A stretch of 50,134 nt of DNA, from assembly GCA_963656725.1 (NCBI GenBank), contig CAVKKI010000001.1, forward strand, positions 1-50,134, in the 5' to 3' direction. The position numbers and the translations under genes were made by a program. The notes below the pieces were generated by a model, which saw only the letters and a list, made by a program, of their open reading frames with translations, was not told where the DNA came from and ran no database searches. Shown piece after piece: positions 13,968 through 22,004 of this stretch. Numbering within the stretch: the stretch's first letter is position 1; the number at the start of each line of letters is the position of its first letter. This DNA is from Oribacterium sp. (lineage in GTDB: Bacteria > Bacteroidota > Bacteroidia > Bacteroidales > Bacteroidaceae).

Positions 13968-15179
13968 CTAGAAACCGTAGGTGATGCTTCGAAGCTGCAC
14001 CTTGGCCAATTCAGCATCGCGCTCGGCCTCGAGTTGAGCGGTGCGAGCGTCGTAATAGAAGGTCAGTTCGAGAAGATAATCAATTAACGAAATTTGGCCT
14101 AATTCGAGCGAGCGCCGCAGCAAGTGCTGACTGTTGAGCGAGGCCAAATTCTCTTGTAAATCGTGGGCTGTTTGTTCCAAACTCTGAGCGGTTTGCCACG
14201 CTTGCGCCAGCTGTTGCTGTTGCGTTTGGTTCACCTCATTCACTTCCAGCTGTTGCGCCAGCGCTTCGGCCTTCGATTGCTTCACGCGGCGGCGCGTGTT
14301 GCACCAAAGCGGCAGAGAGAAACCGAGTGAAAGACCGCTGTAGTTGTTGGCCCGGATGTATTCCCCCTGAAAGCCCACCGTGAGGGCGGGAAGGGCTTCG
14401 GCCTTAGCCACAGCCACTTGCGCTTGAGCCGCCTCAAACTGTTGTTGCGCAAGGGTGGCGAGGGGCGATTGCTGAAGCAGTTGCTGAAGGTGCGCCAACG
14501 TGAATTGCTCGGTGTTGAGGGTGGGGTAAAGCGTGTCGGCCACGGCCACGGCTAGGCCGCCGTTGAGCCGCTGCAATGTGGTTAGCCACGAAGTGCGTTC
14601 CGCTTGCGCCCGTTGCCATTCGGCCTTACTCACCGAAGCGTTAAGGCGCACTTTGTTCACCTCTAGTTGGTTCACGTCGCCACGTGAAAACTTCATTTGG
14701 TAAAGACTATCGAGCTCTTTTGCTAAGGCAAAGCGTTGTTGTAGCTCCAAACAGAGTTTGTTGGCGTAGACAAGCTGTGTGTATGCCTCATCGGCCTCGC
14801 GCCACACCTTTTGTTGTTCCAAGGCATAGGCAGCTAGGGCTTGCTTGTTGGCACATTGCGCCAAGGCCTTTCGGCGGCCGAGCAGCACGCCCCAGTCGAG
14901 CGTCTGCGTCACGCTCACGTTGGTGCGGTTAGGCACGCCCGAGGGCGAGCCAATCAAATAAGCTAACTCCACCTCAGGATCGGGCAGAGAAAGCGAGCTG
15001 CCGTTGGCTAGCTGCGAAGCTTGCAGTTGGGCGCGTTGTGTTTGCAGTGTGGGGTTGTTGCGGTTCACTTGTTGCAACACGCTTGTCAGCCCTTGGGTGG
15101 CTAGTGTGTCAGCTAGCGGAGCGGCTGTTGCAATGACGGGCAACAGTGAGAGCAGATATATTATAAGGCGTTGTTTCAT
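13968..15179 (-). CDS. TolC family outer membrane efflux protein (CzcC-like)
   Basis: Signal peptide, NNPTL, LPDPEV, two-repeat helical architecture, GQISLIDYL; last gene of the RND operon. Confidence 0.88.
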   Translation of the reverse strand: MKQRLIIYLLSLLPVIATAAPLADTLATQGLTSVLQQVNRNNPTLQTQRAQLQASQLANGSSLSLPDPEVELAYLIGSPSGVPNRTNVSVTQTLDWGVLLGRRKALAQCANKQALAAYALEQQKVWREADEAYTQLVYANKLCLELQQRFALAKELDSLYQMKFSRGDVNQLEVNKVRLNASVSKAEWQRAQAERTSWLTTLQRLNGGLAVAVADTLYPTLNTEQFTLAHLQQLLQQSPLATLAQQQFEAAQAQVAVAKAEALPALTVGFQGEYIRANNYSGLSLGFSLPLWCNTRRRVKQSKAEALAQQLEVNEVNQTQQQQLAQAWQTAQSLEQTAHDLQENLASLNSQHLLRRSLELGQISLIDYLLELTFYYDARTAQLEAERDAELAKVQLRSITYGF

Positions 15180-18100
15180 CGTTTTTTCTCTTTGTTATTT
15201 TGTGTTTTAATGGGAGCCATGATGGGCACAATGAAAAGGTTGAGCAGTGTGCTAGTGAGCAGTCCGCCCAACATCACCTTCGCCATGGGGCTCTGAATTT
15301 CGTTGCCCGGAAGGTCGCTGCCCCAAGCCAAGGGAATGAGGGCGAGTGCCGAACAAAGAGCGGTCATGAGAATGGGCAGCAAACGGTCGAGCGAGCCTTG
15401 CATCACCACCTCGTGGCGAGCCAAGCGGTGGTGAGCCAGTTCGTTGTAGCGGTCCACCAACAGCATGCCGCCTCTCGTGGCCATGCCGAAAAGAGAGATG
15501 AAGCCTATGATGGCCGGAATGCTGATTTCGCCCCCCGTGAGCACTAAGGCAAACACGCCACCAATCAAGGCCAAAGGCAAATTGAGCAACACCACAATGG
15601 CTTGGTGCCACGAGCGAAACTGCATGAAAAGCAGCAAAGCAATGACCAAAATGCTCACCACCGAAAGACCGAGCAACAGGCGCGAGGCCGAGGCTTCGCT
15701 CTCAAACTGTCCGCCATACTCAATGCGGTATCCCTCGGGCAGCATCACCTTCTGCGCAATGGCGCGTTGCATGTCGTTCACCACTGAGCGCATGTCGCGC
15801 CCCTCTGCATTGGCCGACACCACGAGTTTGCGCTGCGCATTTTCATGATTAATGGTGTTGGCACCAGCGGTCGACACCAAATCGCACACATCGGCCAACG
15901 GCACTTGTTTGCCCTCGGAGGTGTCGAGGGTGAGTTGGTGTATGCGTTCCATAGTGAGCAAGTCGTCGTCGGCCACACGCACGGTGAGGTCGAAAGTTTT
16001 CGCCCCCTCTTGCACTTGGCTCACCACTTCGCTACCCATTGCAGCGCTGACAAACTCGGCAAACTCGGGGAGCGTGATGCCGTAGCGAGCAAGGAGTGTG
16101 CGCCGTGGGCGAATTACGAGTTGCGGACGCTCCACTTGTTGTTCCACATTCAAATCTTTCACCCCCTCAATGCCTTCGGTGGCTTGTTTAATCTGCATGC
16201 CAATGTGGTGAAGTTGCCACAAATCGGGGCCAAACACCTTAACGGCAATGCCCGCCTTCGTGCCGCTGAGCATGGCATCGATGCGGTGAGAAATGGGTTG
16301 CCCAATCTCCACGTTCACGCCCGGAAGCGAGCGAAGGCGTTGCCTAACGTCGTTCACCACCTCCGCCTTCGTGCGTTTGTCGAGCTTGAAGGGCACCTCC
16401 ATTTCACTCGTGTTCACGCCCAAAGCATGCTCATCGAGTTCGGCGCGCCCCGTTTTTCGAGCCACGGCCTGTACCTCGGGCACTTCAAGCAACAACCTCT
16501 CAGCCCGTGCCCCCATCGAGTCGCTCTCAGCGAGCGACACGCCTGGCAGTGTGCTGATGTTGATGGTGAACGAACCCTCGTTGAAAGGCGGAAGAAAGGA
16601 GCGGCCCAGGGTGAAAAACAAAATCACCGTAGCCACCACCAAGGCCAGTGTGCCGCCCACAATCCAGCGCGACGGGGCACCGATGGCCCACGCCAGAGCC
16701 TTGGCGTAGCTCCGCTTCAAGGCCACCACCCAACGAGGCTCGTGGGGTGTGTTGCCCTCAGCCTTTGCTTCGCCTTTGGAGCGCAGCAAATAATAGCAAA
16801 GCACGGGCGTGAGCGTTAGCGCCACTAGCGTGGAGGCAAAAAGCGAAACAATGAAACTAATGCCTAGGGGGGCGAGCATGCGCCCCTCTAGCCCACTGAG
16901 AAAAAACAAGGGAATGAAACTCACCACAATGATGAGGGTGGAATTGAGAATGGGCATGCGCACCTCGCGCGAAGCGTGAAAAATCACGTTGAGGCGGCTC
17001 TGCCGTTCCGCTTGGGGAAGTGAGGCATTTTGACGAAGGCGTTTAAAAACGTTTTCCACGTCGACAATGGCATCGTCGACCAACGAACCAATTGCTATGG
17101 CCATGCCGCCAATGCTCATGGTGTTGAGCGTGAGGCCCATGGCGTGAAGCACGAGCATCGTGACGAGCAGCGAGAGCGGAATGGTGAAGAGCGAAATGAA
17201 GGTGGTGCGGGCGTTAATCAAAAACACGAACAACACAAGCACCACAAAGATGCCGCCCTCAATGAGCGACTTTTTAATGTTTGAAAGAGAAGAATCGATG
17301 AAATTCTGTTGCCGATAGAGTTGCGTATTCATCTTAACGTCGGCGGGCAACGAGGTTTTCAGCGAAGCGATGGCCGAGTCGAGTTGCTCAGTGAGCTGAA
17401 GCGTGCTTGTGTTGGGCTGTTTGGTCACCGTGAGTAGCACGGCCGGCTGGCCCGACACCGAGGCCACGCCCGTTTTAGGCGCTTTCGCCCCCCGTTGCAC
17501 GTCGGCAATGTCGGCTAAAACGATGGGCTGACCGCTAGCCGTGGTTTTCACCAAGGCTTGTGAGAGTTCGTCGAGACTTTGTGTGCTCAGCACGCCCCGC
17601 ACGATATACTCGTTGCCCCGTTCGTAGTGAATGCCACCCGAGGCGTTCCGGTTCATTTGCCGCGTAGCGTTCATCACCTCACTCAACGTCACTCCATAAT
17701 GACGCATGCGCTCGGGGTGAAGGCGAATTTGATACTCCATTAAATCGCCGCCCATCACCGTTACCTGCGCTACGCCCCCAGTGGAGAGCAAGCGCGGACG
17801 GATGGTCCAGTCGGCCAGAGTGCGCAGCGTGCCGAGCGAGGTGGTGTCGGCGGTAACCCCCACAAACATCACTTCGCCCAAAATGCTCGACTGCGGTCCG
17901 AGGGTGGGCGTGCCCACTCCCTCGGGCAAGGCATCGCCTAGCGTGGCGAGTTTTTCAGAAACAATTTGGCGGTCGCGATAAATGTCGGTGCCCCAATCAA
18001 ACTCCACCCACACCACCGAGAAGCCCGTGGTGGAAGAAGAGCGAACGCGACGCACATCGGTGGCGCCGTTCACCGCTGTTTCGATGGGGAAGGTGACGAG

Positions 18101-18289
18101 GCGCTCCACCTCTTCGGCCGCCATGCCTTTGCTCTCGGTCATCACCACCACGGTGGGAGCGTTGAGGTCGGGGAACACGTCGACGTCCATCTGCCAAGCC
18201 GTGTAACAGCCCACGGCCATTAGCAACACGCTAGCCAGAAGAATGAGCACGCGGTTGCGCAGAGAAAAATGTATGATTTTATTTAGCAT
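15176..18289 (-). CDS. CusA/CzcA family heavy-metal RND permease
   Basis: 1037 aa; DVFPDL, AEEVERLVTFPIE, GSLVDDAIVDVEN, RLLPILMTA motifs of HME-RND pumps. Confidence 0.93.
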   Translation of the reverse strand: MLNKIIHFSLRNRVLILLASVLLMAVGCYTAWQMDVDVFPDLNAPTVVVMTESKGMAAEEVERLVTFPIETAVNGATDVRRVRSSSTTGFSVVWVEFDWGTDIYRDRQIVSEKLATLGDALPEGVGTPTLGPQSSILGEVMFVGVTADTTSLGTLRTLADWTIRPRLLSTGGVAQVTVMGGDLMEYQIRLHPERMRHYGVTLSEVMNATRQMNRNASGGIHYERGNEYIVRGVLSTQSLDELSQALVKTTASGQPIVLADIADVQRGAKAPKTGVASVSGQPAVLLTVTKQPNTSTLQLTEQLDSAIASLKTSLPADVKMNTQLYRQQNFIDSSLSNIKKSLIEGGIFVVLVLFVFLINARTTFISLFTIPLSLLVTMLVLHAMGLTLNTMSIGGMAIAIGSLVDDAIVDVENVFKRLRQNASLPQAERQSRLNVIFHASREVRMPILNSTLIIVVSFIPLFFLSGLEGRMLAPLGISFIVSLFASTLVALTLTPVLCYYLLRSKGEAKAEGNTPHEPRWVVALKRSYAKALAWAIGAPSRWIVGGTLALVVATVILFFTLGRSFLPPFNEGSFTINISTLPGVSLAESDSMGARAERLLLEVPEVQAVARKTGRAELDEHALGVNTSEMEVPFKLDKRTKAEVVNDVRQRLRSLPGVNVEIGQPISHRIDAMLSGTKAGIAVKVFGPDLWQLHHIGMQIKQATEGIEGVKDLNVEQQVERPQLVIRPRRTLLARYGITLPEFAEFVSAAMGSEVVSQVQEGAKTFDLTVRVADDDLLTMERIHQLTLDTSEGKQVPLADVCDLVSTAGANTINHENAQRKLVVSANAEGRDMRSVVNDMQRAIAQKVMLPEGYRIEYGGQFESEASASRLLLGLSVVSILVIALLLFMQFRSWHQAIVVLLNLPLALIGGVFALVLTGGEISIPAIIGFISLFGMATRGGMLLVDRYNELAHHRLARHEVVMQGSLDRLLPILMTALCSALALIPLAWGSDLPGNEIQSPMAKVMLGGLLTSTLLNLFIVPIMAPIKTQNNKEKKR

Positions 18290-18338: not shown

Positions 18339-19496
18339 TTAGTGCGAATGAGAGTGGCCCTCGGGCAAGTTCGACGCATTGGCAGCTAGGCGCACTTGCG
18401 TGGCGCCACGAGTCACCACCTTATCACCCGACTTCAATCCTTCGGTCACCTCTGTGCGTTGACCGTCAGTGCCGCCTAGTTGCACCTCTTGGCGTCGGTA
18501 AGAGAGTGGATGTTCTTCCACATACACATAATGCAGCCCCTGCGCCTCGACAATGGCCTCGTTGGGCACTGACAACACGCCTTGGCGCGGCTGGCAAAGA
18601 AGGTAGACCTCGGCATAGCAGCCTGTGAGCAAGTCGCCCTCGTTATTAAACTCAAACACCACGGGCACGAAGAAGCCCTCGGCATCAGTAGCTTTTCCTC
18701 GCGACAGCAAGCGGCCGCTCAGTTGCGCCAGGGAGTAGACCTTTTGGGCGTCGTAGGCCGTGCGGAAGTTGGCTGAGGTGATGCGTGGCAGCAATTGATA
18801 ATAGCGCTCGGGCACCTCCACACGCAGTTGCACCTTTCGGCTTTGCGTCACTGTGGCCAAGGCTTGTCCGGCAGCCACATAGTCGCCCGGTTTCACGAGA
18901 ATGTTTTTCACGTAGCCACCGATGCTCGAGGAGATGGTGCGTTGCTGCGAGGCCGTTCCTAAACTCCGGGCCGTGGCCTCGGCCGACTGTAAGCGCTGTT
19001 TCGCCTCTTCGAGTTCGCGGGCCGAGATGAGGCGCTCTTTGGCCAATTGCGTGGCGCGCTCATAAGCCGCTCGCGCCGCTTGCCACTCGCTTTGCGCCAC
19101 GGCGGCGGGGTTGCCGTTGGCCAAACTTTGCGCATCGATCACAAACAACGCGCGGCCTGCACTGACTGAAGCGCCCTCGGTTAAACTTTTATCGACGAAG
19201 CGCACAATGCCCTCCATCGTGGCTGTGACGGTGGCCTCGCTGCCTGTGGCGGGAAGTACGCGACCGCTCACAGAAACGCCTTCGGTGAAGGCGGCTGGCG
19301 CAATGGGTTCCACTTGCAAATGAGCCTCTTTCGCTTGCGCTGCAGTGAGTGTGATTTCATCGCCCTCTTCGCTAGCGTGAGCCGTTGTTGTGGCGTGTTC
19401 GTCGGTTTCAGCGTGCGCTGTGTGGGAATGTTGGCACGCTGCAAAGAGTGTAGCCGTTGCTGCGGCCACACCTATAATAAGTGTTTTTTGAAACAT
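18339..19496 (-). CDS. RND periplasmic adaptor (CzcB-like lipoprotein)
   Basis: Lipobox LFAAC, His-rich termini (HSHTAH, GHSHSH), lipoyl/hairpin pattern, GLKSGDKVVTRG. Confidence 0.9.
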   Translation of the reverse strand: MFQKTLIIGVAAATATLFAACQHSHTAHAETDEHATTTAHASEEGDEITLTAAQAKEAHLQVEPIAPAAFTEGVSVSGRVLPATGSEATVTATMEGIVRFVDKSLTEGASVSAGRALFVIDAQSLANGNPAAVAQSEWQAARAAYERATQLAKERLISARELEEAKQRLQSAEATARSLGTASQQRTISSSIGGYVKNILVKPGDYVAAGQALATVTQSRKVQLRVEVPERYYQLLPRITSANFRTAYDAQKVYSLAQLSGRLLSRGKATDAEGFFVPVVFEFNNEGDLLTGCYAEVYLLCQPRQGVLSVPNEAIVEAQGLHYVYVEEHPLSYRRQEVQLGGTDGQRTEVTEGLKSGDKVVTRGATQVRLAANASNLPEGHSHSH

Positions 19497-19617
19497 GAAA
19501 AGAGTTGGTTTGTTGATTATTACGGGAAAGCCACTCCGCTTTCCTCCTTATCGACTCGTCGTTCCTCGCTTATTCTTCTTGAAAAAGCAAGGCAACGACT
19601 GTCTTCTTAAAAAACAT

Positions 19618-20022
19618 TCAACAAACCGCGGGCGGGCCTCGCCGCCAAATGGGTTTGCCCCACGGACAAACGTAAAAAGACCGACAAACGGCAAATGCCG
19701 CTTCGGTGTTGCGGTTATCTAAAATCAGTTCTCCTTTCGTTCCCCAAAAATTGAAGGGAAGGAAGGCTAAATTGTGGCCATGGCTCAATGCGCTTTGCGT
19801 TGCGCCATACACACTGTTTTGCTTCTGCCAATAGCACTCGTGCGAATGGTTGTCGGTGTGATGGTGAGCCGTGTGCTCATCGTTCACCCGCCCATCGGTG
19901 TGACAAACCTCCGATGTCCAGCAAGCCGCCCCGCCTTCGTGATGATGGTGGGGCAAGAAGGAAAGCAGCAGCACAAACGCCACTGCCAACCAAGCGCTAA
20001 ACGTGTGCTTTCGTTGGTTCAT
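19618..20022 (-). CDS. His/Cys-rich exported protein with C-terminal RGPP (DUF6769-like), candidate arrest-peptide leader
   Basis: Start reassigned to ATG 20022, 4 nt after a TATCTTTG -7 element; hydrophobic N-terminus followed by PHHHH; ends WRRGPPAVC. Confidence 0.75.
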   Translation of the reverse strand: MNQRKHTFSAWLAVAFVLLLSFLPHHHHEGGAACWTSEVCHTDGRVNDEHTAHHHTDNHSHECYWQKQNSVYGATQSALSHGHNLAFLPFNFWGTKGELILDNRNTEAAFAVCRSFYVCPWGKPIWRRGPPAVC

Positions 20023-20026
20023 GGTG

Positions 20027-20034
20027 CAAAGATA
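20027..20034 (-). promoter_or_regulatory. -7 element (TATCTTTG), probably giving a leaderless efflux-operon mRNA
   Basis: TATCTTTG-CACC-ATG on the minus strand. Confidence 0.65.
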
Positions 20035-20078
20035 GGGCATTTGCCGTGCAACTTAGTTGCAAAGCAAGAATTTTTGGC

Positions 20079-22004
20079 TCACTCTGGCGGAAAACTTTCA
20101 GTCAAGTCCTTCTTCACGCAGCAATCGTAGAGTTTCTTGTAGAACGGATGTTTGCAAAGCGTGGCCGAAGAGCCGAGCAGAATGAGCTTGTAGCGAGCGC
20201 GGGTGATGGCCACGTTCATGCGGCGGAGGTCGGAAAGAAAACCAATCTGCCCCTCGTCGTTGGCGCGAACTAGGCTCACCAACACCACGTCGCGCTCTTG
20301 GCCCTGGAAAGCGTCGACCGTGTTGACCGTGATGCTTTTGCGCAAAGGTTTAAGCGTTTCGCTTTGCCGCACTAAGGAACGCAGATATTGCACCTGCGCA
20401 CGATAGGGCGAGATAAGGCCGAAGTCCACTCGCTCTTCAAGAAGTCGCTGTCGGCCCATGCGCTCCACATATTGCGTCAAGGCTTTCAGAGCGAGTTGCG
20501 CCTCCGTCTTATTAATGCGTCCGTAGCTTGTGCCCACAAATTGCTCGTGCGCTTCAGCGGGAGCCTCCACCCACACCAAGGGGTGGTCGAGGTCGTTGAG
20601 CAGCGAACGGTGGCGCACTTCGGGAGCAGCCTCTAACTGCCCGTGATAGAACCATTGGCTAGAGAATTGCATCAACGCTTCGTTCATGCGATATTGCACG
20701 CGCAACAATCGCACCACCTCGGGCTTGCGTTCGGCCACTTGCTGCATGAGCGTGCGCGACAGACCGCCACGTAGGGCCTCTACGCTTTTCACCGTGGGCG
20801 GAAGTTGTTGGTGGTCGCCCGCAAAAATCACGCGGTCGGCTTTCTGCAATGCAATCCAACACGCGGCTTCAAGCGCTTGCGCCGCCTCGTCGATGAAAAG
20901 GGTGTGAAAACGCTGGCCAAGGAGTAGCGGGTTGGCGGCACCGGTGAGTGTGCAAGCTATGACGCGGCTCTCGTTGAACAAGTCGTGCCGAATGCGCATC
21001 TCCAATTCGTCGGCGCGCTCTCGAAGGCGGGCTATTTTTTGATGAAACCGCTCGTCGCGACTTTTGCGCGGCGCACTGTAAAGCTGGCGAATGGTGCGGC
21101 GCACTTGCCAAAGGGTGGGGTAGTCGGGGTGGGCCTCGAAGCGGTGCTCGTAGCTATGAGCCAGCATGCCCTCAGTCACTCGGCTCGGATTGCCAATGCG
21201 AAGCACGGAAATGCCGCGGTCGGAGAGTTGCTGACACATCCAATCGACGGCCGTGTTGCTTTGGGCGCAAACCATCACTTGCGGTTCGCGGCGCAGCACC
21301 TCGCTCACAGCCTCGACCAAGGTGGTGGTTTTGCCCGTGCCCGGTGGGCCGTGCACAATGAGCACGTCTTTGGCTCGAAGCACGTCGCGCACGGCTTGTT
21401 CTTGCGAGCCGTTTAGCCACGGCAAGCGCAGGGGCACGGCAGCCTCGGCGCCCCATTGGGCAGGCTGCGAGGTGTGAAAAAGGTCGCGTAGCTCGGCTAG
21501 TCGGTTGCCCTTGGCTTCAATCACGCGGTGAAGGGCCTCGAACATCACGCGATAGGAATAGTCGTCGAAGTGAAGTTGCACGCCGAGTTTGGCCACGCTT
21601 TGCAGTTGCGCCAGAGCGGCTTCGCCGGGCAACTCCACCACCATACGGTTCTCTTCAGCATAGCTCACCGTGCCTTGAAATGAGAGGTAATGAAGCAATC
21701 CGCTGCCGTCTTGTGAAAAGAAGCACACTTGTTTTCCATACTCAAAGTTATGCTCTATGTCGGCATCGACGCTACGATAAAGTTCCACAACGAAACGATT
21801 GAGCGAGTTGTAGTAACTTCGCCCAATCGTTAAGGGAAACCAACAGTCGCCGCGCTTCACTTTGCGGTCAACGCCCATGCTTTCGGTGTCGCGCTGAAAG
21901 GCTTTCTTTTCGTGCTCATACTCGAGTTTGAGAAGGGCTAGCTGATGCGTTAAATGAGTGAGGGGGTTGGATTTAGCGGAGGGGGAGGAGGAGTTTGCGG
22001 TCAT
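20079..22004 (-). CDS. Upf1/IGHMBP2-like superfamily 1 helicase (AAA_11/AAA_12)
   Basis: HGPPGTGKTTT, IDEAAQ, GDHQQLPP, QYRM, TVDAFQGQE, RRMNVAITRAR. Confidence 0.92.
   Translation of the reverse strand: MTANSSSPSAKSNPLTHLTHQLALLKLEYEHEKKAFQRDTESMGVDRKVKRGDCWFPLTIGRSYYNSLNRFVVELYRSVDADIEHNFEYGKQVCFFSQDGSGLLHYLSFQGTVSYAEENRMVVELPGEAALAQLQSVAKLGVQLHFDDYSYRVMFEALHRVIEAKGNRLAELRDLFHTSQPAQWGAEAAVPLRLPWLNGSQEQAVRDVLRAKDVLIVHGPPGTGKTTTLVEAVSEVLRREPQVMVCAQSNTAVDWMCQQLSDRGISVLRIGNPSRVTEGMLAHSYEHRFEAHPDYPTLWQVRRTIRQLYSAPRKSRDERFHQKIARLRERADELEMRIRHDLFNESRVIACTLTGAANPLLLGQRFHTLFIDEAAQALEAACWIALQKADRVIFAGDHQQLPPTVKSVEALRGGLSRTLMQQVAERKPEVVRLLRVQYRMNEALMQFSSQWFYHGQLEAAPEVRHRSLLNDLDHPLVWVEAPAEAHEQFVGTSYGRINKTEAQLALKALTQYVERMGRQRLLEERVDFGLISPYRAQVQYLRSLVRQSETLKPLRKSITVNTVDAFQGQERDVVLVSLVRANDEGQIGFLSDLRRMNVAITRARYKLILLGSSATLCKHPFYKKLYDCCVKKDLTESFPPE

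Follow-up and report, generated by a model that had tools for sequence, protein, structure and literature searches.

Does the small open reading frame (ORF) that heads a heavy-metal efflux operon in an Oribacterium sp. genome control synthesis of the pump encoded behind it, and if so, by what signal? The operon lies in the window, by which we mean the whole 50,134-nt stretch analysed (assembly GCA_963656725.1, contig CAVKKI010000001.1, forward strand). The leader ORF is followed on the minus strand, after 121 nt, by genes for an adaptor lipoprotein, a CusA/CzcA-family transporter of the resistance-nodulation-division (RND) type and a TolC-type protein. With a probability of roughly 0.55, we read the leader, a member of family DUF6769, as an arrest peptide of the type of CutF from Rhodobacter capsulatus: a stall at its RGPP motif would melt a helix that hides the adaptor start, and metal would prolong the stall, raising pump synthesis.

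In steps, the leader is predicted to be exported co-translationally, and the ribosome would stall at RGPP while the P site holds the first Pro, as in other systems. The stalled ribosome would keep the 5' arm of the helix covered, leaving the A-rich adaptor start region open. Once the His/Cys segment, likely exported, had bound metal, the stall would last longer and more pump would be made. The pause would come 67-106 residues after the His/Cys clusters, which would put them beyond the membrane; the lengths of the ribosome tunnel and of the channel are the basis for this placement. The idea that metal lengthens the pause draws on analogy with CutF and on a promoter box that marks exporters. A second, transcriptional layer likely acts through this palindromic box.

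Leader protein and its conserved motifs

The leader and its parts are as follows.
19618 to 20022, minus strand: leader ORF, 134 aa, Pfam DUF6769 (PF20558)
19954 to 20013, minus strand: hydrophobic N-terminal helix (signal peptide or signal anchor), predicted for residues 4-22
19900 to 19953, minus strand: candidate metal-binding segment PHHHH-x5-C-x5-CH; P24, H25-28 and C34 invariant in 16/16 aligned sequences
19834 to 19875, minus strand: second His/Cys cluster (HTAHHH...HSHEC); H53 nearly invariant, remainder variable
19744 to 19764, minus strand: semi-hydrophobic FLP-x-x-x-W patch, about 40 residues ahead of the arrest Arg; P89 invariant in the 16-row alignment
19630 to 19641, minus strand: RGPP arrest-type motif, R128-P131; R128, P130 and P131 invariant

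The initial annotation had described a 134-aa first gene with a hydrophobic N-terminus, His/Cys clusters and an RGPP with three codons left ahead of the stop, and all of these were found at 20022-19618 (minus strand); the spacing of the first cluster, PHHHH-x5-C-x5-CH, differs slightly from its shorthand. Ligand-type residues are P24-H25-28, C34, C40-H41, H50/53-55 and H59/H61/C63, and RGPP is followed by three codons (AVC) and the stop. The N-terminus is basic and leads into helix 4-22, with a peak 15-residue hydropathy of 2.39 and no evident cleavage site. In an AlphaFold2 model built on a shallow 16-sequence alignment (mean predicted local distance difference test, pLDDT, 47.9), this helix was the sole confident part; pLDDT was below 50 for 102/134 residues and no folded domain was predicted.

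The match to DUF6769 is marginal (27.4 bits against a gathering cut-off of 27, residues 16-72), and the six-frame genome search gave the leader 26.7 bits; Bacteroidota clusters of the ESM Atlas match it at 0.97, one of them named DUF6769. Against DUF2946 (PF11162), the family of the leader CruR, it scores 15.1 bits, below the cut-off of 23.7. Its Cys residues (34, 40, 63, 113, 119 and 134) form no CXXC, so the CruR-type CXXC 45 residues before RAPP is absent, and only 4/31 leaders of the genus contain a CXXC. The filters published for CutF-like proteins (Ozturk 2023) select products of fewer than 150 aa with PP at most 15 residues from the C-terminus and a same-strand downstream gene within 1000 nt; here the product has 134 aa with PP at 130-131, and the adaptor AUG, at 19496 (minus strand), lies 121 nt away. 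A further filter of that survey is a Sec/SPI signal peptide predicted by SignalP, and in this place the leader has its basic N-terminus and helix 4-22. A scan of the source genome found the leader to be its only RGPP/RAPP-ending small ORF with a hydrophobic stretch.

The same motifs recur across related loci. In the 16-row alignment the invariant columns were P24, H25-28, C34, P89, R128, P130 and P131, despite pairwise identities of 17-61%. We sampled loci independently of these motifs by searching 41 genomes with the adaptor alone and keeping genus matches at E <1e-80. The results showed that, as the alignment of homologues proposed in the initial annotation had anticipated, 12/12 other genomes of the genus carried upstream an ORF whose product has PHHHH and, at its C-terminal end, RGPP (RRGPP/RGPP); four further adaptor homologs outside the genus were preceded by a RAPP leader in two cases and by a Fur-like gene instead in one, and no leader was found in the last. 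Leader profiles matched 50/123 genomes of the genus, 99/251 of the family and 79/401 of the order. In the best-scoring loci listed, together with a few earlier ones (2/94 loci were unparsed), every parsed leader carried R[AG]PP (genus 31/31, family 30/30, order 31/31; 92/92 in all); these are mostly profile-selected and the profiles contain the arrest motif, so only the 12/12 count is unbiased. PHHHH was present in 31/31, 30/30 and 28/31 of these loci, with a parser that demanded a PHH-type motif, and its distance to the arrest Arg was 95-107 residues in the genus.

A phylum-wide search with DUF6769 matched 7/301 genomes, 3 of them above the cut-off, and in this sample the profile is mostly restricted to the order. 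A word-based homolog search found only 5 proteins, and a related-locus search with the adaptor returned 1 locus. A hydrophobic patch lies at a like distance from the arrest motif in most genus loci, and the FLP patch of our leader could be a tunnel-exit or translocon contact. At four loci (L152, L154, L156 and L157), DUF6769 RAPP leaders lie 213-218 nt ahead of an RND-transporter-like start rather than an adaptor.

Pairing between the leader stop and the adaptor start

The RNA elements between the two genes are as follows.
19618 to 19627, minus strand: 5' arm of the switch helix (last codons and stop), from complementarity and folding
19507 to 19516, minus strand: 3' arm, the A-rich -20 to -11 region of the adaptor start, from complementarity and folding
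19525 to 19599, minus strand: two inner hairpins (19599-19558 and 19544-19525), not conserved and not terminator-like

We found that 19627-19618 is perfectly complementary over 10 nt to 19516-19507, which lies 11-20 nt upstream of the adaptor AUG, as first noted from the sequence; the pair probabilities were 0.93-1.0 in 6/6 folded fragments that contained both arms. Among 412 ordinary operon junctions of the same genome, none had a perfect Watson-Crick match of at least 10 nt between the stop region and -30 to +3 of the next gene.

For comparison across loci, the 18 nt that follow the two Pro codons were scored as a duplex with -30 to +3 of the downstream AUG, and we retained loci whose start was anchored by a lipobox, whose spacer measured 30-310 nt and whose arm was distinct (26/31 genus, 22/30 family and 28/31 order). 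The mean duplex energy of cognate partners against swapped partners was -14.0 vs -6.3 kcal/mol in the genus (n=26), -9.7 vs -5.6 in the family (n=22) and -8.8 vs -4.1 in the order (n=28), while 408 control junctions averaged -3.9 kcal/mol. Duplexes of -10 kcal/mol or lower were found at 21/26 genus, 9/22 family and 11/28 order loci, against 2% of the controls, and perfect Watson-Crick runs of at least 10 nt at 12/26, 2/22 and 9/28. Covariation of this pairing had also been proposed: at least 9/13 positions were paired, their first partner lying between -15 and -5, in 21/27 genus loci compared with 143/702 swaps. Between three and five types of base pair occur at most positions of the genus helix, and RGPP is followed by 23 distinct C-terminal sequences, so that the codons after RGPP appear to be constrained as RNA and not as protein. 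These comparisons indicate that the helix joining the last codons to the adaptor start is kept by compensatory change in the genus.

We then modelled the footprint of a ribosome stalled at RGPP. The opening cost of the -20 to +5 region fell from 6.6 to 1.3 or 0.6 kcal/mol at our locus and from 9.9 to 4.3 or 3.6 kcal/mol on average in the genus, depending on the footprint, whereas a ribosome placed ten codons upstream of RGPP brought no mean gain. With the longer footprint, a gain of at least 3 kcal/mol was obtained at 22/26 genus loci compared with 2/70 controls. As far as geometry goes, the earlier proposal that a ribosome at RGPP would free the adaptor start thus agrees with the model. Translation initiation in Bacteroidia relies on adenines ahead of the start codon (-3, -6, -12 and -13) and on low structure instead of Shine-Dalgarno (SD) pairing (PMC9976891; this and the other papers given by PMC number are cited from excerpts), and these determinants match the A-rich region hidden by the helix.

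The two inner stems that had been drawn inside the helix are both present in the window; they are not conserved, and we rejected them as a required feature, since genus spacers range from 34 to 252 nt with freely differing folds. In one genus spacer of 218 nt (L008), a long near-perfect hairpin is inserted inside the switch helix without breaking it. A sigma-70 and terminator scan found no terminator-like site in the leader-adaptor spacer, and an intrinsic-termination switch is therefore unsupported; three Rfam matches in 19300-20300, all far below gathering scores, were rejected. A candidate second promoter lies inside this spacer at two loci, as a box and promoter match in L155 (G842:C1:3416540-3416574, minus strand) and as TAnnTTTG in L158, which suggests that in some family members such a promoter may bypass the leader.

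The promoter palindrome, the pump and its metal

The promoter and the pump genes are as follows.
20047 to 20061, minus strand: perfect palindrome TGCAAC-N3-GTTGCA, candidate operator, separated by 12 nt from the -7 box downstream
20027 to 20034, minus strand: Bacteroidota -7 element TAnnTTTG (TATCTTTG), 4 nt before the leader ATG; consensus as in PMC7366714
18339 to 19496, minus strand: RND periplasmic adaptor lipoprotein with a His-rich N-terminus (TIGR01730, 156 bits vs 94.9)
15176 to 18289, minus strand: CusA/CzcA-family heavy-metal RND transporter (TIGR00914, 795 vs 701 bits)
13968 to 15179, minus strand: outer-membrane efflux protein of the TolC family (PF02321, 113 bits)

The palindrome, which the promoter shares with P1B ATPase genes, had been missed by the initial annotation. 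It is the sole exact copy in the source genome; a one-mismatch copy with the same 12-nt spacing precedes a P1B ATPase gene (cadmium/zinc-type, TIGR01512 over the cut-off) and then a Fur-like gene. On contig C36 of this genome (L067:390-2829, minus strand; box at contig 2895-2909), the P1B ATPase has a His/Cys-rich N-terminus and is followed by a divergent Fur-like gene (23.5 bits) that the six-frame Fur search of the genome missed. The pattern of box and promoter was found in 38/121 genus and 77/151 family genomes, and the reversed control gave 0. Among the matches listed, 57 distinct box sites were examined, and the spacer was 12 nt at 56/57. The results showed that the box heads metal-export genes at 55/57 sites, mostly of ZntA/CadA-type ATPases: the genes headed were 42 P1B ATPases, 4 leader-adaptor operons, 3 cation diffusion facilitator (CDF) exporters, 3 TolC-type genes, 1 adaptor directly, 1 pair of a heavy-metal-associated (HMA) protein and an ATPase, and 1 Fur-like-ATPase pair, with 2 unrelated genes. 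These counts favour a pump that is switched on by metal excess, and the palindrome leads us to predict a compact regulon of metal exporters throughout the family. One match (L168) lies in a TGCAAC-rich repetitive stretch before a gene that by eye is urocanate-hydratase-like, and is probably not a true site.

Ahead of leaders, the box (at most 2 mismatches) was present at 25/31 genus, 0/30 family and 2/31 order loci. The regulator is possibly Fur-like, but a Fur-like gene lies near the box at only 11/57 loci with 1.5-kb flanks and in 4/20 longer stretches; we therefore rejected a tight linkage, and the weak one makes the regulator a guess. One locus (L206, G449:C2:533500-540000, minus strand) carries consecutively the box, a P1B ATPase, a Fur-like gene, a DUF6769 RAPP leader, an adaptor and an RND gene. 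A candidate Zur box of Desulfovibrio, ATGCAAC-N3-GTTGCAT, has the same core and was computationally assigned to a Fur-family regulator; it precedes the znuABC uptake operon, whereas the box here lies upstream of exporters, with its distance to the -7 element fixed at 12 nt (PMC545781). A literature search, mostly of open-access texts, found no description of this box in Bacteroidota, and the excerpts of a Zur review mention neither Bacteroid nor GCAAC; a Riemerella ZntR paper proved a false lead, its regulator being of the MerR family with no TGCAAC.

From the promoter spacing, the leader mRNA is probably leaderless at this locus. The leaderless start that had been read from the sequence thus probably holds here, with the promoter 4 nt from the ATG; as a general trait it does not, and we rejected it as a required feature, since the start lies within 6 nt of the -7 box at only 14/25 genus, 4/24 family and 3/28 order loci with a recognisable promoter. 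This comparison makes the leaderless start a trait of the lineage. Among B. thetaiotaomicron transcripts, 5' untranslated regions shorter than 10 nt make up about 3.7% (PMC7366714). A longer, 140-aa form starting at 20040 was rejected for the promoter-driven mRNA, because the -7 box would fall inside the ORF. The database copy of the leader (P0001) begins these six codons early, with the -7 element read in frame as Y-L-C (window 20022-20040, minus strand); Y-L-C starts also occur in relatives, so the annotated starts of the family are often too long. The palindrome lies 18 nt from the end of an upstream IGHMBP2-family helicase gene (window 20079-22004, minus strand), a neighbour not conserved at most related loci. 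No terminator-like site was found in this gap, so read-through into the leader is possible and could supply the 140-aa form.

The pump had been called CzcCBA-like. Its membership in the CusA/CzcA family is borne out, and the best PDB matches of the transporter are CusA and ZneA; the adaptor scores below the CzcB model TIGR00999 (102 bits against a cut-off of 319). Transmembrane helix 4 of the transporter carries AIG-x3-DDA-x3-VEN at residue 399, which we take to resemble the HME5 signature. It lacks the CzcA-type (HME1/HME2) signature DFG-x3-DGA-x3-VEN (PMC3637150), so the earlier name is no guide to which metal is involved. Candidate metals are Zn, Cd or another divalent ion, as the shared promoter box suggests, and Ni or Co.

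Competing explanations and relation to known leaders

Several points weigh against metal-gated arrest. The genomes are kin, and the permutation values from swaps therefore overstate significance. The helix is weaker outside the genus, where a footprint gain of at least 3 kcal/mol was found at 9/22 family and 12/27 order loci, and two genus loci (L109 and L126) have no gain. Any terminating ribosome also crosses the 5' arm, so covariation is no proof of metal regulation. Adaptor operons L077 and L014/L070 have the box and promoter and no leader ORF, and the two control layers thus seem separable. After a DUF6769 leader of B. thetaiotaomicron, BT2038-2040 are 2.5-3.3-fold up in the iron-limitation table of PMC10434189, which is the wrong direction for simple switching on by metal excess, though at the mRNA level and in another genus. 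Finally, a full-text literature search for DUF6769 found no experimental data on any protein of this family; its one hit was a Salmonella paper that, from its listing, looks unrelated.

The strongest competitor, which we nevertheless regard as rather unlikely, keeps the stall and drops the metal from it: the leader would be an export monitor like SecM or ApdP, or would couple translation constitutively, and metal control would be purely transcriptional through the palindrome. A helix spanning the last codons and stop, which any translating ribosome melts, fits this explanation, as do the separate candidate operator and the box-only operons. Against it stand a PHHHH and following Cys that stay invariant while the rest of the leader diverges to 17-61% identity, a distance from PHHHH to the Arg held at 95-107 residues in the genus, and the examined family-level leaders, which have no upstream box (0/30).

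The polarity could also be that of CruR, with a stall in metal scarcity turning the pump on and metal binding freeing the ribosome and turning it off, in answer to limitation or metal imbalance. RGPP is a strong default staller (PMC12992588), CruR itself works by a metal-relieved stall (PMC9426467), and the rise of BT2038-2040 has this direction. We consider the explanation unlikely, since the shared box marks exporters (42 P1B ATPases, 3 CDF and 3 TolC-type among 57), the pump belongs to the CusA/CzcA family, and the CXXC that CruR has 45 residues before RAPP is absent.

A periplasmic metal-binding accessory acting in trans, with RGPP and helix only setting its stoichiometry with the pump, is very improbable: His/Cys-rich exported small proteins such as CzcI do precede czcCBA, but CzcI has no proline motif (PMC9973294), no folded domain was predicted for our leader from its shallow alignment, and RGPP, among the most avoided proteome tetrapeptides (PMC12992588), is invariant here.

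Metal-gated arrest is also in line with characterised leaders. Among RAPP-like cores RGPP is the strongest arrest core resistant to elongation factor P (EF-P), 7/7 Streptomyces RAPP/RGPP leaders tested stall, and CruR, toeprinted in the same work, stalls with one Pro codon in the P site and the other in the A site (PMC12992588). Dependence of such an arrest on the Arg has been shown for other peptides. CutF and CutF-like proteins (PMC9973294; bioRxiv 10.1101/2025.02.05.636593) are likewise small first-gene products with metal-ligand residues and a C-terminal PP; they have an export-type N-terminal signal, to which the hydrophobic helix here may correspond, and CutF shares the stem logic, with a downstream stem that hides the initiation site of the next gene, a detoxification gene (PMC9973294). 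CutF uses CxxxC for Cu, an EF-P-sensitive PPP and a stem over an SD sequence (PMC9973294), whereas the leader here has conserved PHHHH and Cys ligands, RGPP and a helix over an SD-less A-rich region. CruR (Bp2923) of Bordetella pertussis, a DUF2946 protein, is likewise encoded by an upstream ORF of about 140 aa with RAPP three residues from its end at the head of a metal-homeostasis operon; it differs in its CXXC, its metal-relieved stall, Rho-dependent termination, an import target and a dispensable signal peptide (PMC9426467).

The initial annotation was unaware of any description of such leaders for Bacteroidota RND pumps, and here it is superseded, as the leader class is already published. 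A survey of 5,334 CutF-like proteins (19% Bacteroidota, 40% normalised) lists CusB/CzcB, CusA/CzcA and outer-membrane efflux protein neighbours in its main text; in the excerpts, it analysed intergenic lengths, not base pairing (PMC9973294). The source data of the RAPP/RGPP small-protein class of Fujiwara et al. 2025 (PMC12992588) hold at least 45 DUF6769 rows; among 27 of them listed, BT_RS10320 included, the downstream gene encodes an RND adaptor in 26 cases and a CusA/CzcA protein in 1. In the ranking of gene classes that follow RAPP leaders, RND adaptors come within the top 30 (620 vs 148). The excerpts of its main text mention neither efflux, RND or TolC nor a Bacteroidota leader tested. 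The comparative evidence for an SD-independent covarying switch and for a shared exporter promoter box appears to be new, neither having been found in the literature searched.

A bolder reading, which we offer tentatively and at less than even odds, is that DUF6769 leaders are periplasmic tetra-His sensors of Zn, Cd or Ni, which sense the metal on the stalled nascent chain and use a long-range helix with covarying arms to gate SD-free initiation. Within the genus, this reading joins the leaders to an undescribed Fur-like regulon (TGCAAC-N3-GTTGCA, 12 nt from the -7 box). The regulon would sense metal in the cytoplasm and control every metal exporter of the Bacteroidaceae, and the two together would be an AND gate that spans two compartments.

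In the literature searched, copper is the only metal shown to act through such leaders, in CruR and CutF, both from Proteobacteria. The covarying helix defines exact mutations, and B. thetaiotaomicron carries the family member BT_RS10320 before BT2038-2040. If metal-gated arrest is true, a His-based leader in Bacteroidales of the gut and mouth would bring metals other than copper within the reach of nascent-chain sensing and would show arrest-peptide control of initiation in a phylum whose ribosomes ignore SD sequences.

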